This document shows, piece by piece, positions 1 to 64,000 of a DNA stretch of 64,000 nt. Origin of the DNA: an uncultured Acidobacteriaceae bacterium (lineage in GTDB: Bacteria; Acidobacteriota; Terriglobia; Terriglobales; Acidobacteriaceae). The stretch spans positions 812,076 through 876,075 of the forward strand of contig CAVZUG010000001.1 of NCBI GenBank assembly GCA_963778445.1, written 5' to 3'. The notes under the pieces were generated by a model, which had not been told where the DNA came from, ran no database searches, and was given only the letters and a program-made list of their open reading frames with translations. The first letter of the stretch is position 1, and every line of letters begins with the position of its first letter. Both the position numbers and the translations under genes were made by a program.

Positions 1-2569
1 ACCTTGATGCCCTTGACCTCGACCGCAGCCGAAGCCGCCCCCGCCGTCGCCGCCGAGGCCGACTTCATCCGCGCCTGCTCCAGCTCCCGCCGCAGCCGCT
101 TGAGCTCGTCCTCCTGCGCGGCAAACCTCGCCCGCAGCGCCTCTGCCGGTGCGCCTTCACCTCCGCCGCCGGCAAACTGCGTCGCCACGCGAGCCACATC
201 CGCGTCTCGCCGAAAAGCCTCGAGCGACCCCGCGCCCGTTACTGCCTCCACCCGCCGCACACCCGAAGAGACCGACCCTTCGCCGACCAGCTTGATCAGC
301 CCGATCTCGCCCGTCGCCCCCACGTGCGTCCCGCCGCACAGCTCCGTCGAAAACCCGTGCGGCCCGCCGATCGTCACCACCCGCACGCGGTCGCCATACT
401 TCTCGCCAAACAGCGCCATCGCGCCCAGCTCGTTCACCGCCACATCGATCGGCACATCCACCAGCGTCTCCACCTTGGCGTTGCCGAGCACCTGCGCGTT
501 CACAATATCTTCGATCTGCTGCAGCTCCTCCTCCGCCACACCCGCAAAGTGCGAAAAATCGAACCGCAGCCGCGACCGGTCCACCAGCGACCCCGCCTGC
601 TTCACATGCTTGCCCAACACCTCGCGCAGAGCCGCATGCAGCAGATGCGTTCCGGTATGGTTGCGCATCGTCGCCCGCCGCACCTCGCCATCGACCACCG
701 TATCGACGGCATCGCCCACCGCGATCCGCTCCCGCACCACCACCCGGTGCGCAAACACTCCCTGCACCGGCTTCGAGCACCCGCTCACATCCGCCACCAC
801 CGTATTGTGGTCCGCCGAGTACAGCCACCCCACATCCCCCACCTGCCCGCCCGAGTCCGCATAAAAACTCGTCGCGTCGAGCACCACCTCACCCGCCTCT
901 CCCGCCGCCAGCTCGTTCACCCCCACCCCATCCCGCACCAGCGCCAGCACCCGCGCCCCATCCACCCGCAACGCCGAGTACCCCTCAAACTCCGTCTTCG
1001 CCAACTCCCGATACACCGGCGCCGCCGACTTCTGCGACCCACCCTTCCAGGAAGCACGAGCGCGCGCCTGCTCCTCTTCCTTGGCCGCTTCGAAGCCTGC
1101 CATGTCAAACGCAATGCCCGCATCGCGCGCCGCATCGACCATAAAGTCGAGCGGCAAACCGTATGTCTCGTAGAGACGAAAAGCGTCTTCCCGCGATGAA
1201 CTTTCGGCTGCGCAGCCTCGACCAGGCTCGAATAGACTTCGATCGGACCTGACATGTTTCGAAGCTGCGACTATCAACCTCTGAATGCCCACGACTCTCG
1301 TGATACTCGTTCTCACTCCAGAACTTCTCATTTTCTTTTGCAATGTCTAGAGCCGAACAGTACGCGCATCGCGAGCTGGGCTCTAGAACATGGTTCAACT
1401 CGCAGTCCGCTCTCCATCACCCGCGCAAACTGCTCTTCCTCCGCCAGCACCACCTTACTCACCCGCTCCGAGTGCTCCACAAGCTCCGGATACGCCACCT
1501 TCATCTCATCCCGAACCGCCCGCACCATCTCAAACAGAAACGGCTTCTCCTGCCCCAGCAGCCGCCCATGCCGAATCCCTCGCCGCATGATCTTCCGCAG
1601 CACATACCCACGCCCCTCATTCGCCGGCACCACCCCATCCGAGATCAGAAACGTCGCCGCCCGCGCATGATCCGCAATGATCCGAAGCGAAGCCGCACCT
1701 CTCCTCCTCCGTCGCCCAACTCGACGAACTGACATCCTGACAACTGGAGAACCCGTCAACTCTGCCGCCCGCGCAATCAACGGCGTAAACAGATCCGTCT
1801 CATAGTTCGACAGCTTCCCCTGCAGCACCGCCGCAATCCGCTCCAGCCCCATTCCCGTATCGATCGAAGGCTTCGGCAGCGGCGTCAGCACCCCATCCGC
1901 GCCCCGATCGAACTGCATAAACACCAGGTTCCAAACCTCCACATACCTTTGTTCGTCCTGCGGAAACGGCAGGTCCACTCCCGGCGTCTCCGCCGCCTCA
2001 ATACCGAGGTCGTAGAAGATCTCCGAACAAGGACCGCACGGCCCCGTATCCCCCATCGCCCAGAAGTTATCCTTCCCCGGCATCGCAAAGATCCGCTCCG
2101 CCGGAACCCCCACCTCCACCCAGTACCCGAACGCCTCATCGTCCCGAGGCACGTTGCCCTCACCCTCGAAGATCGTCACGTACAGCTTGTCCGGCGAGAT
2201 CCCGAACCACTGCGGCGAGGTCAGCAGCTCCCACGCATATGCAATCGCCTCCCGCTTGAAGTAATCGCCAAACGAGAAGTTCCCCAGCATCTCGAAAAAC
2301 GTATGGTGACGCCGCGTAAACCCGACGTTCTCAAGGTCGTTGTGCTTCCCACCCGCACGCACACACTTCTGCGACGTCGCAGCCCGCGTGTACTCCCGCT
2401 TTTCGAGCCCAAGGAACACATCCTTGAACTGGTTCATCCCCGCATTGGTAAACAGCAGCGTCGGATCGTTCGCCGGAACCAGCGACGACGAATGGACGCG
2501 CCGGTGCCCTTTTGTCTCAAAAAACCGCAGAAAATCTTCGCGAATCTGGCTTCCCGACCTGTATTCCAT
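1..2569 (-). CDS. alaS: Alanine--tRNA ligase (3' end beyond window start; indel-split; internal low-GC insert ~1200-1400)
   Basis: N-terminus [69 protein letters not shown]. The distal frame reads [38 protein letters not shown] and ELCGGTHV (editing domain). Confidence 0.95.
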
Positions 2570-2619
2570 AGAGCTAAAGTCTAGCAGCGGCGACCCACCA
2601 GACACTCGAGCGTATGCGA

Positions 2620-5048
2620 TCAGGGCTGCGGAGCAGTAGGCGGGACCTCTGCCGGCGGCCTGCGCTCGACCGGCGCGGCAGGCTGCGTCGCCGGGTTGTC
2701 CGGGTCGCTCTCATCGCTCGGCTCCGCCGGCTTCCTCACCACAGGAGCCTCATCGCTCTCCGCCGGAGCCGCCGGCACATCCAGCACCTTCTTCGGAGCA
2801 CCCGCCGACGCAAATGTCTCCTTCGGTTTGCCCGCAATCGCCGCCCGCATAAAGTCCATCCAAATCGGCAGCGCCGCGCGCGCGCCCGTCTCCTTCTCTC
2901 CCAGCGACTGCGCGGTTATCAAAGCCAATCCACGTCCCGCACGTCACCGATGGCGAAAACCCGATAAACCACGCGTCCGTGTAGTTGTTCGTCGTGCCCG
3001 TCTTTCCCCCCAGCGGATGATTCAGCTGCGCCGCCGCCGCGCCCGTTCCAAAGCGCGTCACCGCCTGCAGCAGTTGCATCATCGTCCGCGCCGTCTCCAC
3101 CGAGATCACCTCCGTCACCTGCGGAGCCTTCTCATCCAGCGGCAGCCCATCCGCCTGCGTCACCTTGCGAATGTAGTGCGGCTCAATGCGGATGCCGTCG
3201 TTCGGAAACACGCTGTAAGCGCCCACCTGCTCGGCCAGCGTAATGTCCGCCGCGCCAATCGCCACCGGCAGAAAGGCCGGCAGATTGCTCGTAATCCCAA
3301 ACCGGTGCGCCGTCTCAATCACCTTCCGGATGCCGGCCTGTCTGCGCCAGCTTCAGCGCCGGAATGTTCCGCGACTCGGCAAACGCGTTCAGCAGCGTCA
3401 TCGCGCCCTTGTAGTCACCCTCGTAGTTGTGCGGCGTGTACGGCCCGCTCGGCGTCGGAAAGCTGGTCGGCCCATCCACGACGATGTCCGTCGGCTTGGC
3501 CCCATCCTCGATGGCCGTCGTATACACATACGGCTTGAACGATGACCCCACCTGCCGCGTGCGCCTGCGTCGCCCGGTTGAACTGCGACAGCGCAAAGTC
3601 CCGGCCCCCCACCATCGCCAGCACCTCGCCGTTCGAGTTGTCCACCGCCATCAGCGATGCCTGCGCGCCGGAATCCTGCTGCAACGCAGGCGCGCAAGCT
3701 CCATCGGGACGGTTCGCCTCCATCCGCACGTACACCACATCGCCCGTCCGCAGGAAGGCTGTCCGCCCGCGTGAATCTGCGTCCACGCGCAATCCTCCGG
3801 CGTCATCACCGCCTGTCTGCGACCCAACTTGCACCATCGCCGTGCTTCGTCGCAACCTCCGTCACCAGCGCCATGCGCATAGCCGCCGTGCACCAGCGTC
3901 TGCGCCCAGTCCGGATGCCGGTACGCTCTCCATATCCGCCCGCGCTGTCCACCACGTTCTGCAGATGGCCCTTCCACTTATGCCGCCGCTCATACGCTGC
4001 CGCCCCGTCCAGCACCGCCTTGTTTGCGACGATCTGCAGATCGAGATCAAGCGTCGTATACACCCGCAGACCGGCGCCGTGCACCTCTTCCACGCCGTAC
4101 TCCTTCTCCAGCTGCCGCCGCACCTCCTCCACGAAGTACGGCGCAATGCTGTTCGCCGGAGTCTCGATCTGCAGTCCCAGCGGCGCAGCCTTCGCCGCAC
4201 TCGCCTGCGCTTCGCGTGATCTTGCCGGTCCTCCAGCATCTCGCTCAGCACCAGGTTCCGCCGCCGCAGCGCACGATCCGGATATTTCAGCGGCGAGTAA
4301 GCCTCCGGTCCCTTCGGCAGCGCCGCCAGCAGCGCCGCCTCCGGCAGCGTCAGATCGCGCACATGCTTGCTGAAGAAAGAACTCCGACCCCGCCTCGAAC
4401 CCATACGTCCCATGCCCCAGGTAAATCTGGTTCGCATACAGCTGAAGATCTGCTGCTTGGTAAACCGCCGCTCGATCTGCATGGACAGAAAGATCTCCTG
4501 GATCTTGCGGCCATACGTCTTCTCGCGACGAAAGGAACAGGTTGCGCGCCAGCTGCATCGTCAGCGTGGACGCTCCCTGCGCCCGCCCGCTCGAATGCAG
4601 ATCGCGCTACGCCGCGCCCACCGCGCGCACCAGGTTCACCCCCCAGTTGCTCTCAAAGCTCTTGTCTTCAATCGAGATGATCGCCTCGCGCAGCACCGGC
4701 GGAAAATCCGCATACGGCACCACCACCCGCCGCTCCAGCGCAAACGATCCGAACACCTTGCCATGCACATCCAGCAGCTCGGTCGTCGTGTTGGGGCGAT
4801 ACCGCGCCAGGTCGTCCATCTGCGGCAGGTCGATCGAGTAGACCAGCATCAGACCGCACAGCGCGCCGAAGACCGCCGACAACCCCAGCAGCACGAGAAA
4901 CGTCAACCGCGCCGGCTATCCGCTTGCTCGGACAGCAGGACCACTCAAGCCGTAGCGCGGCCGTTCAGCCGCTGCCAGAACGGTCCAGTCTTCGTCCTCG
5001 GGCTCCTGCGTCTCCGGTCTGGATAGGCTCCGCACGGCCCTTCACCAT
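2620..5048 (-). CDS. Class A penicillin-binding protein 1A (transglycosylase/transpeptidase), several indels; start approximate
   Basis: Fragments give an N-terminal TM helix, [56 protein letters not shown] (SxxK), SRN and [17 protein letters not shown]. Confidence 0.9.
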
Positions 5049-5141
5049 AGCACGAGCCAACAGCCCCTGACCTCATCGGCTAACCCGCAACCGATCAGCA
5101 ACTGGCACACGGACCATCACAACCGCTTCCAGCGAACCGCC

Positions 5142-6378
5142 CTAAGCTGCCTTTGCCTTCAGCAAATCCAGCGCCTTCGTCAGCTGCTCATCTACTGTCA
5201 CACCCGGCTTCTGGGACGGCTGTCGTCCCCGCTGCCGGAGTCGTCATCGTCGTCTTCGTCGACGCGCCTCATCCTCCGAAGCCACCAGCACCTCCGGCGT
5301 CACGCCGTCATCCTGCAGCTTCTTCCCGAAGGCGACTCGTACTTCGCGACCGACAGAATCAGCGCCGCGCCATCCGGCAGCTCAAACGTCTTCTGCTGCG
5401 CGCCCTCGCCAAACGTCTTCTCGCCCACCAGCTCGGCGCGCTTGTTGTCATGCAGCGCGGCTGCCACGAGCTCCCCGGCCCCGCCGTTCCGCGATTCACC
5501 AGAACCACCACCGGCGCACGTTGCATTCATGGTCTTCGACGGGATCCGCTGTAAACGTCTGCTTCTCGCACCTTCTGCCCCTCAAGCGATCGCAATCGTT
5601 CCGACTCGGCAGCAAGAAGTTCGCCAGCCGCGTCGCCTCCGCTCATATCTCCCGCGGCAACATCGCGCAGGTCGAGCAGTATCTTCTTGTTCCCGGCCTT
5701 CTGCATGCCTTTCAGCTTCGCTTCCATCTGCTGCACATGCTCGTGATCCAGAACGTCCGGCTTCAGGTAAAGAATCGACGAGTTCTCATACATCGTCTCC
5801 GTCACCGGCGGCTGCGCTCACCACCGCCCGCGTCAGCACCACCTTGTCCGGAGCCGCCTTGCGCGGCCGCACCACCGACAGCGTCAACTCGCTGCCCGGC
5901 TGCCCTTCCAGCAGCAGCTGGATCATCGCCAGCGAAAGATCGCGCGTGTCCTGCGGCGCCGATCGCCTCGATGATGTCGCCGTCATTCAGGTTGGCCTTG
6001 TCCGCCGGGCTGCCCGGAACCACCGATACGACCGTCGCATAGCCAAACCGCTTCGACACGTTGATGCCCACCTGCGCCTTGCCCGCCCTTTCGGCCTTGT
6101 AGATCTTGTAGTCCGCCGGCGTCAGGTAGCTCGAGTCCGCATCCAGCGACTCCAGCAGACCGCGCAGCGCGCCGTTGGTCACCGATTGCCGATATTCGGC
6201 TCTTCCACGTAGTCCGTCTGGATGTGCCGCAGCACCTCGCTGTACACATTGATCTGGCTGGTATGCGCCGTCCTGGTCTCGATGCCGCGCTCACGCCGCT
6301 CGAGTTCACACCCAGAAAGACCGTCAGCACCAGAACCACCGAGACAGCGAGCAGCAGGATCTTCGAAATCTTAGGCAT
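5142..6378 (-). CDS. S41 family C-terminal processing protease with PDZ domain (indel-split)
   Basis: Signal peptide MPKISKILLL.., GALRGLLESLDADSSYL, PDZ VVSVVPGSPADKA, ILLDLR, ELVAAALHDNKRAELVGEKTFGEG. Confidence 0.85.
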
Positions 6379-6508
6379 AATGCGAGAGCGACTCTCCAGC
6401 GGGCATCCTGACAGCACATCCGCCCAGGGACAGGTTAGACGTTCCCCGACTCCCGAAATGATACTCTCGTACTCAGAATTGCGCGATACGCGGCAGGCTA
6501 ATACACAT

Positions 6509-6585
6509 TGGTGGCGGTGGGCAGAATCGAACTGCCGACCTACGGGTTATGAGTCCGTCGCTCTAACCATCTGAGCTACACCGCC
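6509..6585 (-). tRNA. tRNA-Met (CAT), elongator-type
   Basis: GGCGGTGTAGCTCAGATGGTTAGAGCGACGGACTCATAACCCGTAGGTCGGCAGTTCGATTCTGCCCACCGCCACCA: cloverleaf, CAT anticodon, encoded CCA, paired 1:72. Confidence 0.95.
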
Positions 6586-6674
6586 TTAAGGTGTACAAGC
6601 GTCCTGCGAATCCGCAGCACCCGCGAAGATCGGCGCTGACGAGTCAGTTTCAACGGCAAAGGAACCGATCGCCG

Positions 6675-7488
6675 GTGGCACAGCCAGATCCAATCATACT
6701 GGATTCGCCCCCAGCGGAAAGCTCGCGCGGACGCGTCCTCGGCGTCATCCCCGCACGCCTGGCCTCCACCCGCCTTCCCCGCAAGGTCCTCCGCACCATC
6801 GCCGGCGAGCCCATGCTCGCCTGGGTCTACGACGCCGCCAACGCCTGCCCCCAGCTCGACGACCTCATCATCGCCACCGACTCCGAACGAGGTCGCCGAC
6901 CTCTGCCGAGCGCAACGGCTGGCCCTTCCGACTCACCTCCCCCGACCTCCCCAGCGGCACCGACCGCGTCCACGCCGTCGCCCAGCTCGATCCACGCCGA
7001 CATCTACGTCAACATCCAGGGCGACGAACCCCTCCTCAAGCCCCGAACACCTCACCGCGCTCCTCGCCCGTTTCCGCGTTCCGCAAGTCGAGGTCACCAC
7101 CCTCAGAGTCGCTCTGCACCCCCGAAAACATCGCGCAATCCCAACGCCGTCAAAGTAGTCACCGCCGCCGGACGGCCGCGCCCTCTACTTCTCCCGCGCC
7201 ACCATCCCCTACGACCGCGACACAACCCACGACACGCTAGTACTGGAAGCACATCGGCCTGTACGCCTACCGGCACGCCGCCCTCCACCGCTTCCCTACC
7301 CTCCCCGCGCGCCCCTCGAGCAGACCGAACGCCTCGAGCAACTCCGCTTCCTCGAAAACAACATCCCCATCTACGTCGAGACCACACACCACGACACCAT
7401 CGGCGTCGACACCGAAGCAGACCTCCAGATCGTCGAGCGCCTCCTCAGCCAGCCCGGCGCAACCCCGCACCTACCGCATCGCACTTAG
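6675..7488 (+). CDS. kdsB: 3-deoxy-manno-octulosonate cytidylyltransferase (indel-split)
   Basis: VIPARLASTRLPRKVL, SGTDR, VNIQGDEP, PNAVKVV, ALYFSR, KHIGLYAYR, LEQLRFLEN and GVDTEADL spread over shifted frames. Confidence 0.92.
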
Positions 7489-10056
7489 CTGACTCGGCGG
7501 CCCAATCGGCCCCTCCAAAACCCTCTCCGCCGTCGCAATCGGCAGCTTCCAGTCCGTCACCGGTGTCCCCGAGACATGGAGCTGCTGCGTAAACCGGATC
7601 AGCCGATCCGTATCCACACCGCTCGCATCCGTAGCCCGCTGCCGCAGGTAGTAAGGCGGAATCGACTGGTAATACAGCGTCGCCCGCACATGCGTCGCCC
7701 TGGCGGTCCTCGGGCTCATCCTGATCTCGTACCGCACCACGCTGCTCCCGCTGCCGTCCCCGTACGAGGGATCGCACGCCTGCTCCTCCCGCCGCGTCAC
7801 GCAGGTCCCAACCGGGCCCGTCTCACTGGCGAACGGCCCCGACGAGCTCCATCCCCGCGGCTGCAGCCGATTGTCCTTCGCCTTGTTTGCCAGGCTGATA
7901 AAGCTCGTCGTCAGGAAGCCCTCAGGATCTCTGACCAGCTCCTCATAGATCTGCACCTCGTCCTGGCGACGAATCGGATCCTTCGCCCAGTGGTGCCTTT
8001 GGACCTCCTGCTGATGCGGCGAGAAGAACTCCGTCCTCAACGCGCTCCCATTGCCATCCACGATTACGCCGTCATCGTTCGTCCTGCCTGACTCCCAAAC
8101 CACGCGATTGTCCTCATCCAGGACCTGCAGATCGATAAAGGCACGCCGAAATCCCACACCCGACGGAAAGCTGTGCCCGGCAAGGTTGGTCACCTTCACA
8201 TCCGCGACAAACCGGTCATTGGCTCGTCCGAACGTCTGCACCTCCACCTCGGCGCTCTTCTGCGAAGCGCTCTCGAAGCTCGTGGCAATCGCGTTGTCGA
8301 TCCCCGGCGTCGTCGTACCCGGACTTCGCAGCATCGGATCATCCTTATACAGCCCCAGCTCCGTCCGGAACTGCTTGAACATCTCCAGCGCAAAGATGTT
8401 GATCCCAAGCAAGGTATGCCGGTGATACTCATCGCGTTTCACCAACGTGATATCCGCATCAGGCGCCCGGAACTCCACCGGCGGAAACGTATTGTCCTCA
8501 ATATTCGCGATCTTGTACGACAGCGGATTGCCCTTGAAATCCTTCTGCATATGGCAGCTCTGGCAGCTCTGGTTCAGGAAGCTGCTGTTCAGCCACTCCA
8601 GGTACGTCGTCTGCTCGTAGAAGTCCGCGGGCTTGCCGTCCCGCATGTACCGTTTGCCGGAGCTCTCATACACCGGCAGCACAATCGTGTGGCACGAGCC
8701 GCAAAGATTCGCCGCCTCGATCTGGTTCTTCTCCGTACTCTTCGGCGTAATGCCCAGCGCGTTCTTCATCGGCAGGACCGCCACGTCATGCTGATACGGC
8801 CCATAGACCTCGTCCACCGGGCCCAGCTTGAACTTCGCCGTAAACGTCTCCGGCTTGCCCAGCCCATCCGCCGCAATGTGGTGGCACGCGGCGCACGACA
8901 CGCCATCGCGCGCCAGCGCCCCATAGGTCGAGTGCGGATCCAGAAGCTCCGCGCGCTCCAGAAAGCCGCCCGTGTCCAGCTTGTGCTGCCGCTGTCCCAT
9001 CACGCCGTGACAGCTCAGGCACAGATCCTGAACAAACGGCTTGGCATCCTTCACATGGTCTTCAAGCTCCGGGTGCAGCGCGTTCTCGGAGTTCAGCTGC
9101 GAAAAAAAGATCGGGTCCCGCCCCGACAGGCCCATCATCGAAAATCGCCACTCGCCGTTCATTGACACATTCGTGATCGGGTCCGCCAGCGCGTTCGGCC
9201 ACAGCATGCTCGGCAGGTCCGCGCGCGTCGGCGACAGTGTTCCGGTCGCATTGTGGCAGCCCGTACATTGATCCGAGGTAATGAAGTGCGTCGGCGCATC
9301 GTTCGCCGCGCGCGGCACCACATGGTCGAACGACTCCGGAACCATGCATCGCCGCGGTCCAAAAGTATCCTGCTGAAACAGCTTGCGCGCCAGCCGATGG
9401 TGGATGTTGTCGTCCGGAGGAGTCGACGTACTTGGAGGCGGCACAGCCACGGGCGCCAGATGGTTCGGGCTCGCATAGGTGCTCTGGCCGCTCGCCGCCG
9501 ACGCATGGCAGTTCAGGCAGTACTGCCCAAACCCGATGCTCGGAAATACCGCCTCAGGACAACTTTTTGTGGAGCCGGTCCCCTCTGCCGTTGTCGTCGA
9601 CGGCGCGGAAGACGTCGGGGAACTCAGGTCCGCCCAGTACCACCCGTCGTGCGACCCCTTGGCGTCCTTCACCATGATCGTCCATTCATCAAGCGGCGCC
9701 GTCGGCTCCGGGTACTGCTCCTTCACCAGCATCGATCCATCCGGTGGCTGCCCCTGCCGGTGGTTCACCGTCATCCACCGCCACATCTGCGGCGAATAGT
9801 AGATCTTGATGAACGGGTGCACGCCATCCGAAGACCGGATGCTCCCATCGTGCATCCACCCCTGGGCTCGGTAGCAGTAACCAGCCATAAACGTCTCTAG
9901 TTTGGCTTCAAAACCGGCCGAGCTCGCTGGAGGAAGCGCTTCGCAAGCTGCCTGTGTGTTTCTGTCCGCTTGCGAAGCGGACACACGGAGAGACGGAGCG
10001 AGCGCCAGCAGCGCGCATCCGGAGATCAACGTCAGGTATCGAGCGGTGGGAGCCAT
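7471..10056 (-). CDS. Secreted multiheme c-type cytochrome (6 CxxCH) with N-terminal cytochrome P460-like domain
   Basis: AGGAGG RBS and signal peptide. Heme motifs CLNCH, CTGCH, CLSCH, CAACH, CGSCH, CQSCH. P460-like PDGSMLVKEQY..WTIMVKD..GWYW segment precedes the first CxxCH. Confidence 0.85.
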   Translation of the reverse strand: MAPTARYLTLISGCALLALAPSLRVSASQADRNTQAACEALPPASSAGFEAKLETFMAGYCYRAQGWMHDGSIRSSDGVHPFIKIYYSPQMWRWMTVNHRQGQPPDGSMLVKEQYPEPTAPLDEWTIMVKDAKGSHDGWYWADLSSPTSSAPSTTTAEGTGSTKSCPEAVFPSIGFGQYCLNCHASAASGQSTYASPNHLAPVAVPPPSTSTPPDDNIHHRLARKLFQQDTFGPRRCMVPESFDHVVPRAANDAPTHFITSDQCTGCHNATGTLSPTRADLPSMLWPNALADPITNVSMNGEWRFSMMGLSGRDPIFFSQLNSENALHPELEDHVKDAKPFVQDLCLSCHGVMGQRQHKLDTGGFLERAELLDPHSTYGALARDGVSCAACHHIAADGLGKPETFTAKFKLGPVDEVYGPYQHDVAVLPMKNALGITPKSTEKNQIEAANLCGSCHTIVLPVYESSGKRYMRDGKPADFYEQTTYLEWLNSSFLNQSCQSCHMQKDFKGNPLSYKIANIEDNTFPPVEFRAPDADITLVKRDEYHRHTLLGINIFALEMFKQFRTELGLYKDDPMLRSPGTTTPGIDNAIATSFESASQKSAEVEVQTFGRANDRFVADVKVTNLAGHSFPSGVGFRRAFIDLQVLDEDNRVVWESGRTNDDGVIVDGNGSALRTEFFSPHQQEVQRHHWAKDPIRRQDEVQIYEELVRDPEGFLTTSFISLANKAKDNRLQPRGWSSSGPFASETGPVGTCVTRREEQACDPSYGDGSGSSVVRYEIRMSPRTARATHVRATLYYQSIPPYYLRQRATDASGVDTDRLIRFTQQLHVSGTPVTDWKLPIATAERVLEGPIGPPSQLSAMR

Positions 10057-53109: not shown

Positions 53110-53177
53110 CTTTTAGACAGTTTTGGGCGCAAATTTCTCAATTCACCAGATATGCTGCCGTCACGAGCGAAAGCTCA

Positions 53178-53195: not shown

Positions 53196-53210
53196 AATTT
53201 ACGCAGTGAG

Positions 53211-54422: not shown

Positions 54423-54535
54423 ATGAGATAACGATTCTCGATGGTCGGTGTGTCGCGACTTGTGTGTACCACGCGTACCAAGTGCTTCGCTCTCACGAAT
54501 ACTCGTCCTCCCACCCTCTTCAGCACCGTCTGCCG

Positions 54536-54805
54536 TTACATGATCAGGGCGAGGCGGGAAAGCTCTTCCTTCATACACTGGAGATTGCAGCCGAGGGACT
54601 CGATGCGGCTGGCGGCGGTGCGAGCTTCGGTGTTTGAAACACCGTAACCCCTTCCACTGAGAAAGGAACTGATGAGTTCGCCAGCCTGCCAGGAATCGAT
54701 GCCCGCCTGCTGGAGCTCCTCGCGAAGGTTGAATAGATCTGCCTGAGTAAAGGTGTCGGAGCTAGGTTGCAAGTCGTCCTCGAATCCTGCCGCTGTCTTC
54801 GGCAC
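54536..54805 (-). CDS. Small hypothetical protein
   Basis: Compact 89-aa ORF (LREELQQAGIDSWQAGELISSFL..GYGVS) filling the gap between the regulator and folD; function unknown. Confidence 0.65.
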   Translation of the reverse strand: MPKTAAGFEDDLQPSSDTFTQADLFNLREELQQAGIDSWQAGELISSFLSGRGYGVSNTEARTAASRIESLGCNLQCMKEELSRLALIM

Positions 54806-54972
54806 TGCAGAGTAGGACGCAGTCTGTTGTGTCGACGCGTCACGGAATAGGTACGTGTCAGGGCCGACCAGCAGATTGCGAAGTATTTTGTTCGCGTGAT
54901 AAAGCCAATGAAGCCCCCGGATTGGGAGCTGCGCCGTTCCGGCATTCCGAGCTGGCGCGATAGCATAAACGT

Positions 54973-55920: not shown

Positions 55921-55926
55921 GCGGCG

Positions 55927-56589
55927 ATGCTGCGGGTTGGGCTTACGGGAGGACTAGGCAGCGGGAAGTCGACTGTGGCGGCGATGCTGGCCGAGCGCGG
56001 CGCGCACGTCATCCAGGCGGATGAGGTTGCGCGGGAGATGATGCGGCCCGGGCAGGCGGTGTATGCGGCAATTGTGGAACGCTTTGGGCCTGACGTCGTG
56101 GGTGCCGGCGGCGAGCTCGAACGGGCAAAGCTTGCTCGACTAGCGTTCGACGGCGACAGGCTGGAGGAGCTGAATGCGATTGTGCACCCGGCGGTGATTG
56201 CGCGGCAGGCGGAGATGGCGGAGGAGATTGGACGTCTGGACCCGGAGCCGGTGATTGTGGTGGAGTCGGCGCTGATCTTCGAGACTCAGCACGGTGGGGA
56301 AGGCGGGTGGAGGAGGCGCTTCGACTTGCTGGTGCTGGTGACAGCAAGCGAGGAGTTGCGAATCGACCGCTTCGTAAAGAGGTTGGTGGGGACCGGTGGG
56401 AGTGACAGCGAAGTTGCGGCTGCGCGGGAGGAGGCGTGCCGCCGGCTCCGGCGGCAGATGCCGGATAGCGAGAAGGAAATCGCGTGCGAGTACGTTCTGC
56501 GGAATGAAGGAACACTGCTCGAGCTCGAGACGGAGGTGAATGCGCTCTGGCGTGCGCTGCTGGCGGCTGCAGCAGGGGCGAGGCTGTGA
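55927..56589 (+). CDS. coaE: Dephospho-CoA kinase
   Basis: VGLTGGLGSGKSTVA P-loop, LNAIVHP, ESALIFE. Confidence 0.95.
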   Translation: MLRVGLTGGLGSGKSTVAAMLAERGAHVIQADEVAREMMRPGQAVYAAIVERFGPDVVGAGGELERAKLARLAFDGDRLEELNAIVHPAVIARQAEMAEEIGRLDPEPVIVVESALIFETQHGGEGGWRRRFDLLVLVTASEELRIDRFVKRLVGTGGSDSEVAAAREEACRRLRRQMPDSEKEIACEYVLRNEGTLLELETEVNALWRALLAAAAGARL

Positions 56590-57227
56590 GCGGATCGAGG
56601 AGATTCTCGCGCCGCCGGGTGGTGCGGCATCTGCTGTTCGCGGTGCTGGCAGCTGGGATGACAGGGCTGGTGTACCGCATACTGCCGCAGCGGGACTGGC
56701 GTCACCAGCTAAGCATGGGAACGGCGTACGCGGGACTGGGATTTCTCCTGTGGTCGCTGCTGATCGGCCCCTGGAATGTGCTGCGAGGCCGGGCTAACCC
56801 GGTGAGTTCGGATCTCAGACGGGATGTAAGCATCTGGGCTGGCTTGCTGGCGGTTGTGCACACGGGCGTCGGCCTGACGGTTCACCTGCGTGGACGGATG
56901 TGGATGTACTTCTTCAAGCGGCTGCATCCGTTGCACATTCAGAACAATGCTTTCGGTGCGGCGAACTACACGGGTCTCCTTGCGGCGCTGCTGTTTGTTA
57001 TGCTGCTGGCGATCTCGAATGACGCGTCGTTGCGATCGATGGGGGCGCGGCGATGGAAGAGCTGGCAGCGGTGGGCGTATGCGGCGGCTGCCCTGACGGT
57101 GGTGCATGCGGTGATCTTCCAGAGTGTGGAGACGCGACATCTCCCGTGGCGAGCGGTTCTATACTTAGAGATCGGGCTGGCTTTGGCGCTGCAGGTAGCG
57201 GGAGCGGTAAGGACGGTACGGAAGTGA
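56586..57227 (+). CDS. Ferric reductase-like heme b membrane protein (MsrQ-like)
   Basis: LRRDVSIWA..VVH, LAISND..RSMG..WKSWQRWAY..VVH; hydrophobic helices with His ligands. Confidence 0.75.
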   Translation: MSGSRRFSRRRVVRHLLFAVLAAGMTGLVYRILPQRDWRHQLSMGTAYAGLGFLLWSLLIGPWNVLRGRANPVSSDLRRDVSIWAGLLAVVHTGVGLTVHLRGRMWMYFFKRLHPLHIQNNAFGAANYTGLLAALLFVMLLAISNDASLRSMGARRWKSWQRWAYAAAALTVVHAVIFQSVETRHLPWRAVLYLEIGLALALQVAGAVRTVRK

Positions 57228-57264
57228 GACTGGTATTGGTCACTCTTAAGGAATGGTTCTATTG

Positions 57265-58479
57265 ATGAAGCTGCGTCCTGTATTGCTTGTCCTGCTGTTA
57301 CTCACCGGCTTTTACTATCTGACGACGCACCTTGCGTCGACGGGGGCAATGGCGCCGATGGTGCGCCGCGCCCTGCTGGGACCGCAGGCGGATGTTGCCG
57401 GGACGAGTCTCCAGACGGTGAAGGGGCCGATGGGGGCGTTTGACCTGACGGAGGCGTCGGCAGCTCCGGCGTTTGACACGGAAGAACAGCAGAACATGGG
57501 TGTGTACAAGAAGGCGCTGCCGTCGGTCGTGAATATCACGTCGACGGCGGTGCAGTTCGACTTCTTCTACGGTCCAGTGCCGCAGCAGGGGCAGGGATCG
57601 GGGTTCATCCTGGACAAGCAGGGGCTGATCCTGACGAACAACCATGTGATCGACAACGCGCAGCGGGTCGAGGTGACGCTGAGCGATAAGCACAAGTACA
57701 AGGCGCAGGTGATCGGGATCGACAAGAACCACGACCTGGCACTGATCAAGATTCAGGCGCCGAACCTCCAACCGGCGACGCTGTCGGATTCGAATGGCCT
57801 GACGGTGGGACAGAAGGTGTACGCGATCGGAAATCCGTTTGGGCTGAACGGCACGATGACGCGGGGCATCATCTCGTCTATCCGGTCGATCCGCGGGCCA
57901 AACAATAACCCGATCGAGGACGCGATTCAGACGGACGCAGCGGTGAATCCGGGCAACTCGGGTGGTCCGCTGCTGAACTCGCGCGGTGAGGTGATCGGGA
58001 TCACGACGCTGATCGCGAGCAATGGAGCGGACCAGAGCTCGGGCATCGGGTTTGCGATTCCGATCAACACGGCAAAGGCGGTGCTGGACGATTTTGCGAA
58101 GTATGGGCACTCCCGGCGGCCATCGCTCGACATTGTGACGCTTCCGGTGTCGCCGGATATTGCGGAGCAGATCGGGCTGCCGGCGGACTATGGCATCCTG
58201 ATTGACCGCGTGATTCCGGGTGGGGCGGCGGAACGGGCCGGTCTGAAGGGCGGCACGCAGCGGATGTACAACGGCAACCAGCCAGTGATGCTGGGGGGCG
58301 ACCTGATTGTGGCGCTGGACGGGCAGGAGATCGCGACGGTGCAGGATCTGTCGGCGGCCATGAATGCTCACAAGGCGGGTGACGTGGTGACGCTGACGAT
58401 CTTTCGCGGGCGGCGGCGTATGGATGTGAAGGTCACGCTGAGCGACGCGAAGGACCAGGGACCGGGGCAGACGACGTAG
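57265..58479 (+). CDS. HtrA/DegS-type trypsin-like serine protease with PDZ domain
   Basis: GSGFI, TNNHV, HDLAL, IQTDAAVNPGNSGGPL, C-terminal PDZ. Confidence 0.95.
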   Translation: MKLRPVLLVLLLLTGFYYLTTHLASTGAMAPMVRRALLGPQADVAGTSLQTVKGPMGAFDLTEASAAPAFDTEEQQNMGVYKKALPSVVNITSTAVQFDFFYGPVPQQGQGSGFILDKQGLILTNNHVIDNAQRVEVTLSDKHKYKAQVIGIDKNHDLALIKIQAPNLQPATLSDSNGLTVGQKVYAIGNPFGLNGTMTRGIISSIRSIRGPNNNPIEDAIQTDAAVNPGNSGGPLLNSRGEVIGITTLIASNGADQSSGIGFAIPINTAKAVLDDFAKYGHSRRPSLDIVTLPVSPDIAEQIGLPADYGILIDRVIPGGAAERAGLKGGTQRMYNGNQPVMLGGDLIVALDGQEIATVQDLSAAMNAHKAGDVVTLTIFRGRRRMDVKVTLSDAKDQGPGQTT

Positions 58480-58523
58480 CGGAGCAGGCCGCTTCTTTTG
58501 CGGCGACTTAGAATCGAATAGGT

Positions 58524-59544
58524 ATGGAACCCGTTCAACTGCCGCCCCCTCCACCGGCGGTCTACAACTGTCCGCAGTGCAGCCACTACATCCACGAAGG
58601 GACGCTGGTGTGTCCGGAGTGTGGGACGCTGATCTATGGTCAGTACGTGGCCGGGCTGGCCCATGTGGCGCAGACGATGGAGGGCGAGAAGCGGTGGGAC
58701 GAGGCGCGGGCGGCGTGGGGTGAGGCTCTGACGTGGCTGCCGGAGGGGACGACGCAGGCTGGTGCGGTGCAGTCGCGGGTGGCGGCGATCGACTCCCACG
58801 CGCGGGCGGACCAGGAGAGGATGGCGAAGTGGACCAAGCGGCTGGGTCCGCTGGCCCCGATCCTGCTGTTTCTGGGCAAGTTGAAGGGCATTCTTTTTGT
58901 GCTGTTCAAGATGAAGTTTCTGTTCAGCTTTTTTGCGTTCTTCGGGCTGTACTGGGCTTTGTTCGGGTGGAAGTTCGGGCTGGGATTTACGCTCTCGATC
59001 CTGGTGCATGAGATGGGGCACTACTGGGCGGTGAAGCGGCGTGGTTTGAAGGCGGATTTGCCGGTGTTTATGCCGGGGCTGGGGGCGTATGTGCGGTGGT
59101 ATGCGATGGGCATACCGTTGGACGGGCTGGCGGGGATCGCGCTGGCGGGGCCGCTGTTCGGGTTGGGCGCGGCGCTGATCTGCCTGGGGCTGTTTGCCTG
59201 GACACACCAGCAGGTGTACCTGGCGCTGGCGCATACGGGGGCGTTTATCAACCTGCTGAACCTGATTCCGGTGGTGGGGCTGGACGGGGCGCAGGCGACC
59301 TATGCCTTGAACCGGCTGCAGCGCGGTCTTCTCCTTCTGAGCACGATTGTGCTGTTTGGGCTGATGAAGGAGGGTGTGTTTCTGTTTCTGGCCGCGGGCA
59401 TGACGTGGCGGATGTTTACGAAGGACGAGCCGGCCGAGGGGTCGGCGAAGACGATGGTGTATTACCTCCTGCTGCTGTTCTGCGCTGGGGGCGTTTCTGT
59501 TTATTGTGCCGCCGGGGACGGTGCGGGGGCAGCGGATGTTTTAG
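58524..59544 (+). CDS. M50 site-2 protease with N-terminal zinc ribbon (3' end probably frameshifted; ORF track runs on into the repeat)
   Basis: CPQC..CPEC; HEMGH; IALAGP; NLLNLIPVVGLDG. Confidence 0.88.
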
Positions 59545-59558
59545 GCCGATGCTGTCCT

Positions 59559-59778
59559 GGGGGTACCCCCCCCCCGGATCAACTTGTAAAATAGCCAGAA
59601 TCAATGACATACAAAACGGGGCGCCTGCAAAATCCTCCATCCATTAGGTTTATGGGTAAATTCCTCATAACAAAGGAGAAGGGTTGCCGCTGATATTGGA
59701 TAGGCGGCTGGTTTCGATCCCGTATCCCTAGGTTCGTCCGTACTTTCATTCTAATCAGGTGATCGGAGATGTACGCCA
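59559..59778 (-). repeat. Dispersed element copy B (three 28-bp motifs)
   Basis: Plus strand GGGGGTACCCCCCCCCCGGATC, then motifs starting 59585, 59626, 59655 (41 and 29 nt periods, same as copy A). Minus-strand TGGCGTA..TAGAAT (59748-59753). CTTGAC at 59822. Confidence 0.8.
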
Positions 59779-59959
59779 TAGCTAAATCGCTGTAACAGCT
59801 GGGTTTGTACAGGCCAGGTGACTTGACGGTGTGGTTTGGCTATTGAAGTTAATCCTCCGCGGGACAGGTGGCTCGCCCGGGATCCCGCTTGACGCTTCGG
59901 CTGTCCCAACTGTGGTTAGAACTGTTGGAGTTTGTGATTCGCTGAGTTGATCGGGTAAG

Positions 59960-60015
59960 TGTGTTGGGTATTCGGGTATCGGGTATTGGGTATCGGGTGT
60001 TGGGTATGAGGTTTT
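59960..60015. repeat. Intergenic tandem heptamer array (GGGTATY)
   Basis: GGGTATT(C) GGGTATC GGGTATT GGGTATC GGGTGTT GGGTATG. Confidence 0.8.
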
Positions 60016-60079
60016 GGAGGGCTGGAGCGAGGGCAACGAAACGCAGGTCTCTCCGCTGTCGGGTAGATCCAGGGTGCTT

Positions 60080-61709
60080 TCAGGGGACCGTGGGGGTGGC
60101 GGGGCGGCGAAGGCGGTAGACGACGAATGCGGCGAGGGCTATGCCGAAGGCTTCGAGACCGCGGACGGTCCAGTAGCGCGCGCCGTGGGTGTGGTGGAGG
60201 GAGCCGCTTTGCCATGCGTTCCTGGTGGCGATGAGGTCTTCGGCGAGGCCGGGGATGGTGATGCTGTGGAGGTCTGTGGTGGGGAGTGAACCGAAGATGC
60301 GGTCGGGGGTGGGGCGGGCGCCGTTGCGATCTTTGGGAATGGCGGCGATGAGGGCGTTGACCTCCGCGTCGCGGGGGTCGTTGAAGAGGGCGGAGTCGGC
60401 GGTATTGGGGAAGAGGGTTGCGTGGCCAGTCAGCTTGTTTTCGATGGCGGCGACGGCATCCTGGCAGACGCCGAGGGCGTAGTAGCCGCCAAAGGGAAGA
60501 GCGGGGCGGGCGAGGTGCTGGTGGATGTAGGCCACGGCCATGAGACCGGTGAGGCGGGTGACCTCGACGGCGTCCGCGCCGGTATAGGTGTGAGCGTGGC
60601 GGCCGAGAACCCAGGGCTGGTTGAGCTCGTCCATGGTGCGGAACTCGGCTTTGCCGTCGATGCCGAAGTAGAAGGCGACGTCGGCGTTGATGCGGGGGCC
60701 GCGGATGAACCACTCGTACTCGGTGTGGGTGACGGGGACGAGGAGGGGACGGCTGGTGCCGGGGACAAGGATCTGCGGAGTTGACCCAGAAGGGCATCAT
60801 GACGTCTTCGCCATTGAAGTGAAAGTGGCCGAAGTTGGCGAAGTAGCGTGCGTCGGCGACGGCCACGGTGTGGCCTGTGGCGGTGAGGGCCTCGATCAGA
60901 TGTTCGGGGGAGTCCGCGGTATGGCCGGCGATGGTGGCCGTTGCTTTGGGGTTGTTGTCGAGGGGGTTGAGGGAGAGACGGTTGAGGACGTAGGCGAGGC
61001 GGGCGCTTTCGGGGTGCGTGGGAGCGATGGCGGGGTCGGGGCCGTCGCCGCGGGTGACGCCGTCGCCGAGGGCAGTGACGATTCCCTCAGTGGTGAAGCC
61101 GGGAAGTGTGGAGGGCTGGTTGAGGTCTATGGTTTCGGGGTGGGCAAGCGTATAGGGGCCGAGGTCGATCCAGGTGGCGATGGAGGGTGTTGGGCAGTTG
61201 TCTGGAGCAGTTGTGGGTTCCTGCGACTCCGGTGGCGCATCAGACCCCACCCTTTCGCGATGAGACTGCGAGAGGGTGGGGCACCCGCCGGGGTTTCCGG
61301 GATTGGCGAGGCTTTCGGCCTGAGAGTCTTTGCCGACGATGTGGCCGGCTACGCGGACGGTGGGATTGATCTCGCGCATGGTCCAGCCGGGGAAGCGGTT
61401 GAGGCCCTCCCAGTCCTTTCCGAGGATGAGTTTGCGCATGGTGTCGGCGAGCTTTGGGGTGAGGAGGGCGGGACCGTTCTTGCTGCCTTTGTCGATCTCG
61501 GAGAGGACGGCTTCGGTGAAGCCAGGTTTGGTGGAGAGATGCTGCATCATCTCGGAGAGGAGGATGGTGTTGGGAGGCATGGGGCCGGTGGGCGGGGTGT
61601 AGCGTGCGCGGCCGCTGCAGCCGGCGAGCGCGGTGGCGACAGCTCCGGCGATGGCGCCGATGAGGAACCAGCGGGCTTTGGGAGCGGGGACGCGGACGGA
61701 CGAGCGCAT
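60080..61709 (-). CDS. Hypothetical lipoprotein with C-terminal TM helix (indel near 60780)
   Basis: Lipobox LAGC; the frames join DARYFANFGHFHF..MMPFW to HTEYEWF..GGYYALGVCQD and a hydrophobic C-terminus. Confidence 0.7.
61245..61287. repeat. REP-like palindrome inserted in frame in the lipoprotein gene
   Basis: CCCCACCCTTTCGCGATGAGACTGCGAGAGGGTGGGGCACCCG is a hairpin with the same TGGGGCACCCG tail as 21595-21605; encodes GCPTLSQSHRERVG. Confidence 0.7.
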
Positions 61710-61893
61710 GAGTAGTTGTAACCGATTGGGTGCGGGGGCGAGGCGGCGGGATACCTCGAGCCTTGGGGTTGAGCCGCGGTTTAGAGGCGCCGGTCCACGG
61801 TTTTATTCTTCGAGGACGGCGCTTTCCAACTGACGAGAGATGATTTCCGGGTAGCCCTTCGTTGGCCCACGGTCCGGCTTGCGGTTGGTTGGT

Positions 61894-62406
61894 CTACTTT
61901 CCCGGATCGTGCGCTGCAGCCTGCGGGTCAATTACGGTGTTATGCCCTTCCGCGACGAGCCAGCGCTTATCACGATGCACAAACACCAGCGTCAACATGT
62001 TTCTGTTCGGCGGTGCGATGGATCCATTCGGGGATGGGAACCCGTCCATCGGAATGGCCTGTGTGACGATCACTACGCCTGGAGCGACCTGCCGCAGCTC
62101 CGTCGTCTCCGCGTCGTGCATCTGCCGGTCTTTGAATGTCGATCTGTGCATGCGGTCATGGGCCAGAAACACCTGCGCTTTTCCACGCCAGCGCATGCCC
62201 ACAATGTTCACCCACTCCACATCATCCGTCATGTAGCTCACGAACGCCTTCATATCATGGTGATTCCACGCCGCCTCCAATCCATCGAGCGCCGCATGGA
62301 TCTCCGCGGCATCGTTTGCAGGAATGGAGCTTTGTGCGACGCTTTTTCTCAGGTGAACCGAGCACCAACGCTATTCCAACGACTGCGACCCATTTGCCAT
62401 CCGCAT
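61894..62406 (-). CDS. Secreted NTF2-like / SnoaL-like (SgcJ/EcaC-type) protein; indels in the 5' part
   Basis: AAWNHHDMKAFVSYMTDDVEWVNIVGMRWRGK..LTLVFV..WLVAEGHNT; GGAGG RBS and signal-like 5' segment. Confidence 0.75.
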
Positions 62407-62607
62407 CCTGACCGCCTCCATGCCGACAGCTTACCGTGAAAGTGCTTCATACTGGACCAAAGCTCCGCTATAGGTCCTACATCGGGGTAGCTGACGAGAA
62501 TGCGACTTAGCGTGACTAATTTCTCGTGACGTGCTGACGGGCTCAGTCCTCAGTTTCCGAAAACCCTGACTTTGCAGGCGGTTCAACAAGCACCCATAAT
62601 CTGAGAG

Positions 62608-62847
62608 ATGGTGAATAACCAAAAGGTGTTTGTGATTGCCTGGCTTGGGACAGCGGCTCTACTCTTCGCTGCGGGCTCAGCTGACTACGGAGGATCACGT
62701 CTGGAGACTGCTGTGGAGGCGCTTACCGTTGCTTCTGCTGCGGGGACAGTTGTCACAACATTTTTGCGTTTCGCTCGTTCTGGAGAGCCGCTTCAGCAGA
62801 CAGTGGGTTTGCTGTTTTTGGGCTTGCTTCCTCGCCGTTTCTTGTAG
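62608..62847 (+). CDS. Small hypothetical membrane protein
   Basis: Hydrophobic 79-aa ORF preceded by TTGCAG-17-CATAAT-7 nt-ATG. Confidence 0.45.
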   Translation: MVNNQKVFVIAWLGTAALLFAAGSADYGGSRLETAVEALTVASAAGTVVTTFLRFARSGEPLQQTVGLLFLGLLPRRFL

Positions 62848-63091
62848 GAGCGCTGCTGGCCCTCAACGGAACTGAGCCGAATTTTCACTACACCTCGATG
62901 GGTGGACTACTCTTCTACGGTCTCCTCGCAGAGATCACGGCTGCAACGCTACTAGTTTCACGCGTCTTCGCACGGTGATGCGTAACCAGCAACCTGGCCA
63001 GCCAATCCAGGGGTCCCAGAAACGGCGTTTTCGGAATAGATGAGATATCGCCACGATTTGAGGCGAGTCTGTGCGGTGTGAGCCTCTGGTG

Positions 63092-63592
63092 TCATCCCTT
63101 GTGTTCGGTTGCGTGTTTGCGGGCTTTGGCGGCGGCGGGCGAGTTGGGGACGAACTGTTTTCCGGTCTTGGAGGCGACGACCTTTTTGCGGTCTGTCGCT
63201 TTGCGCTCCTCCGGTGAGAGCTCCTTCCAGGCGGCGTCGGGGAGGTAGCGGTGGGTTTCGCCGCCCTGGACTGCGGGTTTGCCGTCGGCGGTGTGCCAGT
63301 GCTCGTCGCCCCATTGCTTCAGGGATTCCTGTGCGGCGTTGCGAGGGTGCTTGTAGCCGCCGCCTTCAGCCTCGTACTCGTGGGCGACGAGTTGGGCTTT
63401 GCGAGCGCTCCACTGGCCGGCGCGGCCGCCCTTGTCGCCTGCCATCACCTCTGCCTTGATCTTGTCGCGCAGCTCTGGTTTGGTGTAATCACCGGCGCTG
63501 CTGCTGGCCGACTTCTTGCCTGCTGCCTTTGTCGCGGTCTTCTTCGGAGGGGATTTCTTTGCTGCGGTTGCCGCGGCCTTTGTTGTGCTCAT
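63092..63592 (-). CDS. Conserved hypothetical protein with Lys/Ala-rich N-terminus (DUF5872-like, from recall)
   Basis: YTKPELRDKIK..GGRAGQWSARKAQL..YEAEGGGY..LKQWGDEHW..RYLPDAAW; GAGGTG RBS. Confidence 0.7.
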   Translation of the reverse strand: MSTTKAAATAAKKSPPKKTATKAAGKKSASSSAGDYTKPELRDKIKAEVMAGDKGGRAGQWSARKAQLVAHEYEAEGGGYKHPRNAAQESLKQWGDEHWHTADGKPAVQGGETHRYLPDAAWKELSPEERKATDRKKVVASKTGKQFVPNSPAAAKARKHATEHKG

Positions 63593-63642
63593 GCGTCGTC
63601 ACCTCACCTGCTATAGAGAGATGCCTGCTGCGGCCCGAGGAC

Positions 63643-63684
63643 AAAAGGAAGGGTTCCGGGAGCTGAACTCCGGGAACCCTCTCC
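63643..63684 (-). terminator. Intrinsic terminator for the last gene
   Basis: GGGTTCCGGGAG-CTGAA-CTCCGGGAACCC hairpin followed by TTCCTTTT on the minus strand. Confidence 0.65.
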
Positions 63685-63707
63685 GTAACGCGGGTGGATC
63701 GTTGCTC

Positions 63708-64000
63708 CTAATAGGCGCGGTAGACGCCGCGGTAGGCGATGGGCGGGTAGGCGTATCCGTAGGGTGGGGGTGGGTAGCCATAGGGGCCGGGAGGATAGTT
63801 GTAGACCACCTGGGGCCGGGGCTGCTGCATGACGACAGGGGCCGCAGTCTGCTGGATGATGGTGGGGGACGGGGCCTGGACGACGACGACGGTGGGGCTC
63901 GGCTGGGCGTAGGCCTGCTGGATGGGTGCGGGTTGTGCGTAGGCCTGCTGCACGGGTGCGGGTTGCTGCTGTTGAGCGTAGGCGCGCTGGATGGGTGCGG
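63708..64000 (-). CDS. C-terminal end of a Pro/Gln/Tyr-rich protein (5' part outside the window)
   Basis: Repeats of PAP(I/V)QQAYAQ and a YPPPPYGY tail; stop at 63708. Confidence 0.65.
   Translation of the reverse strand, partial: APIQRAYAQQQQPAPVQQAYAQPAPIQQAYAQPSPTVVVVQAPSPTIIQQTAAPVVMQQPRPQVVYNYPPGPYGYPPPPYGYAYPPIAYRGVYRAY

Follow-up and report, generated by a model that had tools for sequence, protein, structure and literature searches.

To my knowledge, a single origin per chromosome is the rule in bacteria, and the existence of natural multi-origin bacterial chromosomes is an open question. Among described systems, eukaryotic replication N-domains show linear skew ramps between oppositely facing sites, whatever the size of the gap, and Chi and KOPS are G-rich oriented motifs tied to strand skew, Chi acting upstream of itself with decay. 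The window analysed here, a whole stretch of 64,000 nucleotides from an uncultured Acidobacteriaceae bacterium (G000:C1:812076-876075, G000 being the genome that holds it), contains four of the 105 copies of a roughly 200-base oriented cassette, hereafter the element, which shares these traits and bears on that question. It departs from N-domains in that its domains are bacterial, 20-120 kb in extent, of far larger amplitude and set by a sequence element, and from Chi and KOPS in being 200 bp long instead of 8, in lying on the C-rich strand and in tracking local domains, not two replichores. The association between skew and element is real, genus-wide and tied to an undescribed mobile module made of a site and a gene, here called Z; the mechanism, proposed below, is directly testable.

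The genome is 67% complete and lies in five contigs, and the relatives of its hemH are Acidobacteriaceae (Edaphobacter, Granulicella, Tunturiibacter). Its 3330 genes were called with a purpose-made hexamer model, on which all figures for four-fold degenerate sites depend. The 105 element loci come from an iterated hidden Markov model (HMM) at E<=0.1, the stricter 1e-3 giving 91. The literature, searched mostly outside subscription journals, yielded no paper on the element, on Z or on element-linked skew in Acidobacteria. In the accessible portions of three sources, skew is mentioned in figure legends alone (PMC4148992), Acidobacteria are not covered (PMC7717575) and the term 'skew' is absent (PMC5900883).

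Skew domains and the orientation of the element

The original prediction, made from the window, held that plus-strand skew alternates between four domains irrespective of gene direction, each of 5-15 kb and holding one copy of the element in matching orientation. The domains are real: in 2-kb windows plus-strand skew is -0.11 to -0.34 (1-15 kb), +0.12 to +0.20 (17-24 kb), -0.12 to -0.30 (27-42 kb) and +0.07 to +0.31 (54-64 kb), the five 60-base C and G counts quoted for them are all exact, and four-fold-site skew reaches about 0.75 with both signs. Gene strand explains next to nothing of the four-fold skew in 1-kb bins (R2 0.02), and the four copies, named A, C, D and B, are present in the orientations given. 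The whole genome is a mosaic like the window, with domains larger than foreseen (66 of at least 10 kb, median 36 kb). One copy per domain holds only in part: 51 of the 66 domains (2.96 Mb) have a concordant copy, exactly one in 28 of them, many have several, and 15 (0.27 Mb) have none. Some of these element-free domains look like recent inversions.

Genome-wide, the element strand is C-rich at 103 of 105 loci in 2-kb flanks and at 102 in 5-kb flanks (binomial p 3e-28, a value to be read with the non-independence of neighbouring copies in mind). Skew decays with distance from the element, as had been proposed; the halo is not symmetric but polar and extends about 25 kb upstream and 3-4 kb downstream. 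Linear deconvolution over 3670 1-kb bins gives a kernel of -0.2 to -0.47 between 25 kb upstream and 3 kb downstream, falling to about -0.1 past 4 kb downstream. Element positions alone account for four-fold-site skew with an R2 of 0.50, against 0.12 when orientations are shuffled and 0.29 (maximum 0.36) for random sites oriented by local skew. The upstream-downstream asymmetry is -0.19, compared with 0.00+-0.04 (most extreme -0.12) in 200 skew-matched random sets.

Gaps between neighbouring copies differ with their orientation. In back-to-back (- +) gaps, whose median length is 52 kb, skew follows a near-linear ramp from about +0.6 to -0.5, both below 20 kb (n=3) and above 45 kb (n=12), the ramp being less clean at middle sizes (n=5). 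Tandem-copy gaps are flat, with skew near 0.5 up to 45 kb, and middle-sized face-to-face (+ -) gaps (median over all sizes 18 kb) have a neutral interior.

Between copies A and C, six minus-strand genes have skews of -0.51, -0.59, -0.17, -0.02, +0.30 and +0.46; their counterparts, in unchanged order, have flat skew near +0.1 in the relative G171 and near -0.6 in G008, and graded skew in G170 and G172. As the A-C switch lies inside an operon that is colinear in five relatives, it is neither an inversion nor a chimera. Independent contigs of a 99% identical strain span positions 14785-16613 and 17576-18356 of the window; the strain differences in X1 number 73, 19 of them C/G, and are unpolarised. 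In 73 relatives, of which all but one preserve the gene order, the four-fold skew of the hemH block takes values between -0.81 and +0.87.

Copies of the element also appear and vanish in place. Eleven of the 12 G000 copies with orthologous flanks (0.7 Mb of G171 compared) sit in colinear gene pairs and the matching G171 sites that were inspected lack the element, so copies come and go without rearrangement. Relative to orthologues in the closest complete relative, skew at G000-specific copies is stronger upstream (0.12-0.15) and weaker downstream (0.07-0.15), a modest effect with standard errors of 0.04-0.13.

These data bear on the possibility, raised with the original prediction, that the element is a motif carried along by inversions. 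In its fuller form, ordinary replichores have been inverted often and a mobile element inserts fork-oriented, like IS200/IS605, thereby following the skew passively. Blocks are indeed heavily shuffled and inverted between G000 and G171, with many inversions and translocations; orthologue skew correlates between the two (r 0.88, 202 genes), being largely inherited, with copy positions mostly unshared; 15 domains lack a copy; sharp G171 switches at 2198 and 2755 kb coincide with synteny breaks; and the element moves, as seen in an 822-bp unit described below and in near-identical copies in the genome G077. Passive insertion produces neither the upstream-downstream asymmetry, nor the A-C switch within a colinear operon, nor the skew change at G000-specific copies. 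Moreover, the time since G000 and G171 parted has sufficed for four-fold sites to turn over more than once, which should have erased the concordance of inverted blocks under a single origin. Inversion explains a minority of the mosaic (the shuffling between G000 and G171, some element-free domains), and as an account of the whole it is quite unlikely.

Base composition and the process behind the bias

In the most skewed genes, four-fold sites of the element strand are C 0.82, A 0.06, G 0.065 and T 0.05, and the bias follows in all eight codon families and at two-fold sites. Simple deamination of single-stranded DNA (ssDNA) is not supported, since C rises on the element strand while A, G and T fall together to about 0.06; on one strand any base gives way to G, a pattern other than that of C-to-T deamination. 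Amino-acid usage differs by strand (Pro 0.074 vs 0.048, Gly 0.073 vs 0.099, Glu 0.043 vs 0.065). Between G000 and G171, exchangeabilities are nearly flat and four-fold turnover differs little between skewed and weakly skewed genes (1.72, 1.65, 1.98), which fits a process acting everywhere with only its direction changing.

A second repeat marks the same strands. G000 has 161 copies, in 75 clusters, of a hairpin family (GCAG-ATTCCC-loop-GGGAAT-GACA) resembling repetitive extragenic palindromes (REP), and the strand of the GCAG foot is the G-rich strand in 75 of 75 clusters, regardless of gene direction. This constancy implies that the strand choice was already acting when these young repeats spread. 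According to PMC6006769, HUH elements related to REP use the lagging-strand template, which together with the REP orientation fits the G-rich strand being leading-type. The copies form direct tandem arrays with GCAACA microsatellite spacers (e.g. C1:71245-86693), none of them in the window; a Z gene carries one such array, inserted in its tail (C1:1246371).

The original idea that the element seeds a local strand-asymmetric process passed the tests of concordance, decay and the A-C switch; the process itself is one that I infer. Tentatively, and with confidence a little short of even, I favour reading the element as a mobile, one-sided start site of DNA synthesis by which strand bias would be set tens of kb upstream. 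Transcription by RNA polymerase would begin at the promoter, cross the repeats and enter the G-tract, where the G-rich RNA would stay hybridised as an R-loop; Z would bind the repeats, and at the opened or nicked DNA synthesis could begin 0-4 kb downstream, then proceed back across the element into the upstream DNA. The leading-type, G-gaining strand would then be the one opposite the element, in keeping with ordinary bacterial skew. Forks from back-to-back copies would converge and produce a linear ramp whatever the gap size; a flat domain would result from tandem copies and a weakly biased gap from face-to-face ones, and these three shapes are all seen in G000. The scale-free ramps, the uniform turnover, the REP orientation and the promoter-repeat-G-tract build favour such a start.

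Several observations weigh against it. R-loop primers such as those of ColE1 and T4 fire downstream, whereas the long tail of the element lies upstream. Four-fold GC climbs with skew (0.71 to 0.88; orthologue slope 0.19), which pure fork mixing does not predict; the four largest face-to-face gaps of G000 flip sharply mid-gap instead of being neutral; a looser REP pattern lowers the strand agreement to 122 of 143; and Z resembles no known initiator in sequence and fold searches. The genes for DnaA, RNase H, MutS, DnaE and DnaE2 occur in every element-bearing genome searched, so nothing forces origin-free replication.

Other lineages add to these difficulties. G171 and G172 have strong skew (root mean square, RMS, 0.23) over 100-200 kb with few copies (only three in 400 kb of G171), also 40-110 kb downstream of a copy. 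Outside the genus, polarity was sampled in G117, G077 (5 kb upstream, 2 kb downstream), G068, G025 and G060. Skew is weak in G025 (RMS 0.048) despite about seven diverged copies in 400 kb; in G077 only 9 of 13 copies are C-rich upstream (mean -0.055); and in G068 the sign is opposite, the element strand being G-rich downstream at 8 of 8 copies and upstream at 5 of 8. The mosaic persists, weaker (RMS 0.085 vs 0.19-0.23), in the complete genome G381, which lacks Z and has one copy. On the other side, the weakness of the mosaic in a genome without Z speaks for the start-site reading, and G117, of another genus, repeats the saw-tooth, with a clear upstream ramp at three of four copies in 200 kb. 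Strong skew far from copies, weak skew with copies and the change of sign indicate that the element alone is not sufficient. I infer that the strength of the bias needs a second, lineage-specific factor; old halos probably persist after their copies are lost, and lineages may differ in the direction of the process. A one-sided start explains neither the upstream direction nor the long-domain genomes.

With regard to replication genes, loss of RNase H, MutS or DnaE2 was considered as the cause and rejected, as it fails to separate strong- from weak-skew genomes. dnaA is not at one fixed kind of skew switch (G000, G171, G174, G381), and G068 has, besides dnaA, a second match to the DnaA C-terminal domain (385-aa frame, G068:C1:4005211-4005408).

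The base composition is better accounted for by a polar hotspot of recombination or transfer, Chi-like or oriT-like, at which the element strand would invade the homologue from another cell over ~25 kb upstream. There, repair that misses C-containing mismatches would fix C on that strand, amounting to strand-specific GC-biased gene conversion, with rare events sufficing in large populations. The reading is rather unlikely overall. MutS is present; C goes up while A, G and T go down equally, and GC climbs with skew; the geometry, an upstream effect with decay, is that of Chi; and the halos of G117 reach zero within about 20 kb. A hotspot does not lead one to expect that ramps in back-to-back gaps scale with gap size, and the REP orientation calls for a standing choice of ssDNA strand. 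Furthermore, a 200-bp cassette with a promoter is dissimilar to Chi, and neither a relaxase nor any other common gene except Z was found among the proteins beside the copies. Packaging, which had been mentioned as a source of asymmetry, is weakened along with transfer: no PF03237 terminase was found in five of five genomes, in a search limited to that terminase family, and the PHROG small-terminase match of Z has an E of 0.35.

The long upstream tail and the 0-4 kb downstream zone would also suit a polar fork barrier, where initiation is dispersed, head-on transcription or an R-loop at each copy halts forks coming from downstream, the DNA upstream would always be replicated in the direction of the element, and the leading strand is C-rich. 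The weaker downstream skew of G000-specific copies agrees with such a stop zone, and there is a slight excess of genes coded on the C-rich strand (1232 vs 1110). A barrier needs reversed polarity, but near dnaA the skew of G025 passes from C to G, with the usual sign; the REP orientation would point to the G-rich strand as the ssDNA strand; and a second source of initiation would be required. I consider it improbable.

Architecture of the element, its gene and the window

The element exists as the original prediction stated and is bigger than it was thought to be. In order, it comprises a promoter-like box (TGGCGYA-N18-20-TAnAnT), 50-150 nt, one to three AT-rich repeats of the CTAA-N11-GAAGACTTT type, a G-tract and often GTAC. 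The strict box has 80 matches in the genome, 77 of which precede a copy, lying 109-217 bp (5th-95th percentile) from its end on the upstream side; a reversed control has 2. By sequence match, a box faces the G-tract in strict form in 70 of 105 copies and in a looser form in 88. A strong hairpin lies between box and repeats in 45 of the 77 copies, and a GTCAA motif 48-49 bp upstream of the box in 10, with no fitting -10 seen. A scan for the sigma-70 consensus gave no match at copy A, because its -35 differs. Other lineages retain the -10 box and have an altered -35 side; since the G000 box is lineage-specific, a family search with it returned mostly background. A supposed second element in relatives was rejected, as it turned out to be a single orthologous promoter region.

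The octamer GGGNAGGG occurs in 51 of 105 element tracts, which brings to mind a KOPS-like motif guiding FtsK along replichores. Other GGGNAGGG octamers lie on G-rich strands (573 vs 95), the reverse of the element. An assembly artefact would have to reproduce the pattern in finished isolate genomes, on a plasmid and across the independent contigs of the 99% identical strain. Both ideas are already largely refuted and highly improbable.

That plasmid is pACIX902 of G. tundricola (300 kb; locus L131, NC_015065.1, 223822-223884), the only match in a plasmid scan; its element lies in C-rich DNA as predicted, with skew of -0.2 to -0.3 over 20 kb upstream. An IMG/VR scan gave 0 matches to the strict element pattern and 120 to a loose one, none passing the HMM, and Z was not found there.

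The Z family, recovered by clustering the proteins that flank copies, sits directly behind some of them. All six G000 paralogues start within a few bases of a copy's end on the same strand; by eye, the element leader is present at 28 of 30 Z loci from 24 genera, and 26 of the 30 are C-rich over 1.2 kb upstream. In a predicted model, the protein (135-280 aa) combines a head resembling a Cys/His Zn finger with a helical hairpin, in which a Tyr and a Gln are invariant, and an acidic tail that varies; Tyr93 is invariant in 124 sequences, and H-x-H occurs in only two of four aligned G000 paralogues. Z has no match at E<=0.001 in Pfam, PHROG, NCBIfam or PDB sequences, and in fold comparisons no match stood out from background (Foldseek at best E 0.009, with an unnamed viral protein; VIA at best Z 6.0). 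It forms 4989 clusters at 50% identity with no named family; its Atlas matches are unnamed Acidobacteriota clusters, with DUF5763 as a weak lead.

Z is present in 89 of 150 genomes of the family and in 0 of 139 from the phylum's other families, and in 30 of 32 family genomes with the element core vs 59 of 118 without it (tallies in which the genomes G022, G041 and G156, marked as unpublished, count as rows and related genomes are not independent). Within the genus, at most one pattern match occurs in each of the 8 Z-less genomes and in 16 of the 82 that have Z; in family and genus alike, Z and the core tend to occur together. A unit of 822 bp, which runs from shortly ahead of the promoter into the tail of Z, was duplicated recently: it occurs twice, 98.5% identical, without visible terminal inverted repeat or target-site duplication, its ends being defined from this single pair. 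Two solo copies retain the first bases of Z, so solos arise from Z modules. G077 has near-identical 130-bp cores of recent expansion (L413-L425), often bounded on both sides by the short inverted motif TTCC(C)AAAATGG(G)AA. In G171 (L304, C1 about 2199200) a remnant with repeats and without G-tract lies at the right end of a C-rich ramp, adjoining rnpB and ruvA at a synteny break.

Table 1. Copies of the element, skew domains and associated features of the window.
Feature	Position	Strand	Remark
Copy A	12612-12815	+	multi-repeat subtype
Copy A, promoter-like box (TGGCGYA-N18-20-TAnAnT)	12612-12643	+	box match
Copy A, three AT-rich repeats and G9-TA-C8 tract	12690-12815	+	HMM match
Copy C	17972-18133	-	single-repeat subtype; between hemH and coaD
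Copy C, promoter-like box	18103-18133	-	box match
Copy C, core: GTCCRGAC box, CTAA-N11-GAAGACTTT, G5AG3 tract	17972-18034	-	HMM E 2.8e-12
Copy D	36477-36633	+	core HMM match
Copy D, variant promoter-like box (TGGCATAG ... TATCCT)	36477-36508	+	by eye; fails strict pattern
Copy D, core with G-rich tract and GTAC	36562-36633	+	HMM E 5.5e-14
Copy B	59559-59778	-	multi-repeat subtype
Copy B, promoter-like box	59748-59778	-	box match
Copy B, repeats and G10-TA-C5 tract	59559-59652	-	HMM match
HAD phosphatase, phosphomannomutase, mannose-1-P guanylyltransferase, aminotransferase, coaD	12849-17620	-	skew passes from -0.51/-0.59 to +0.46; gene order shared by five relatives
C-rich domain	1-15000	.	upstream tail of copy A
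G-rich domain	16500-24000	.	upstream tail of copy C (hemH, hemE, ppa, amino-acid transporter); ends early near tRNA-Ser
C-rich domain	27500-42000	.	surrounds copy D
G-rich domain	54500-64000	.	surrounds copy B
tRNA-Ser(GCT)	23066-23158	+	skew steps at same gene in relatives

Of the zones called near-neutral in the original prediction, the one at 42-54 kb is not neutral, its four-fold sites being weakly C-rich (-0.03 to -0.44). The zone at 23-27 kb begins at tRNA-Ser, and the lower GC of both (0.56-0.62) would fit acquired DNA. From 23066 to 27500, the tRNA gene is followed by multicopper oxidase and PQQ dehydrogenase genes, with a skew step; relatives carry different DNA beyond the same tRNA-Ser, which is likely an integration hotspot for islands. 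Positions 41900-54400 hold glycoside hydrolase and large TonB-type genes at GC 0.56-0.60 with weak skew, likely a more recently acquired polysaccharide-use locus. An Rfam scan of the window found two tRNAs and nothing else. Frameshifts split many housekeeping genes (alaS, phosphomannomutase, coaD, hemE) at 1-10200, 13510-14954, 17387-17994 and 19188-20382, likely homopolymer errors of a long-read assembly, and a 30-nt coding repeat occurs in three copies at the window end (63901-63999).

Significance and comparison with described systems

It is possible, if somewhat doubtful, that Acidobacteriaceae possess a family-specific mobile replication-start module, Z with its promoter-repeat-G-tract site, whose gene-less copies have spread over the chromosome, and that, in the clade of Edaphobacter, Granulicella and Tunturiibacter, dozens to a hundred one-sided origins set fork direction. 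If so, skew domains would be eukaryote-like, and codon and amino-acid usage would be rewritten by the distance to the nearest copy. Should a rival reading hold instead, an oriented element that brings about 80% of four-fold sites to a single base, and alters amino-acid usage, is still a powerful mutational or conversion force in a soil group that is among the commonest. This affects phylogeny, codon-based inference, origin prediction and skew-based assembly checks, which would call these genomes misassembled. As the 200-bp site is defined, a candidate protein is at hand and carriers are in culture (Tunturiibacter, Granulicella, Edaphobacter), sequencing alone would suffice to test the matter.

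I know of no HUH system of the IS91, IS200/IS605 or REP kind that reshapes base composition over 25 kb. In IS91-type elements, synthesis proceeds from the downstream end toward the upstream one, as proposed for the element. With IS91/ISCR, IS200/IS605 and REP-TnpA(REP) (PMC6006769 and PMC3733652 for the latter two), the element shares gene-less copies, a strand preference and a protein with an invariant Tyr, and perhaps a mobile unit without inverted repeats or target duplication; what sets Z apart is the absence of a conserved HUH motif (Y-x-x-Q instead of Y-x-x-x-Q) and of matches to HUH families or folds.

Haloarchaeal orc1/cdc6-ORB origins and plasmid rep-iteron systems likewise have a gene beside repeats, a polarity given by a G-string, several mobile origin-gene pairs and skew mosaics. 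Z has no AAA+ or winged-helix match, being a Zn-finger plus helical hairpin, most copies of the element are gene-less, and the host is a bacterium with dnaA.

The build of the element is that of R-loop-primed origins (ColE1 RNAII, T4 ori(uvsY), vertebrate mitochondrial LSP-CSB II): a promoter, a 100-200 nt leader, an AT-rich stretch and a G-tract of the form G5-9-A-G3-6 on the transcribed strand, with transcription and R-loop predicted for the element from its sequence. Such an origin would leave the element strand G-rich downstream, which is seen weakly in G068 (8/8) and not in G000 or G117. The element further differs from these origins in its about 100 copies on a bacterial chromosome, in its long-range upstream effect and in having a Zn-finger gene of its own.

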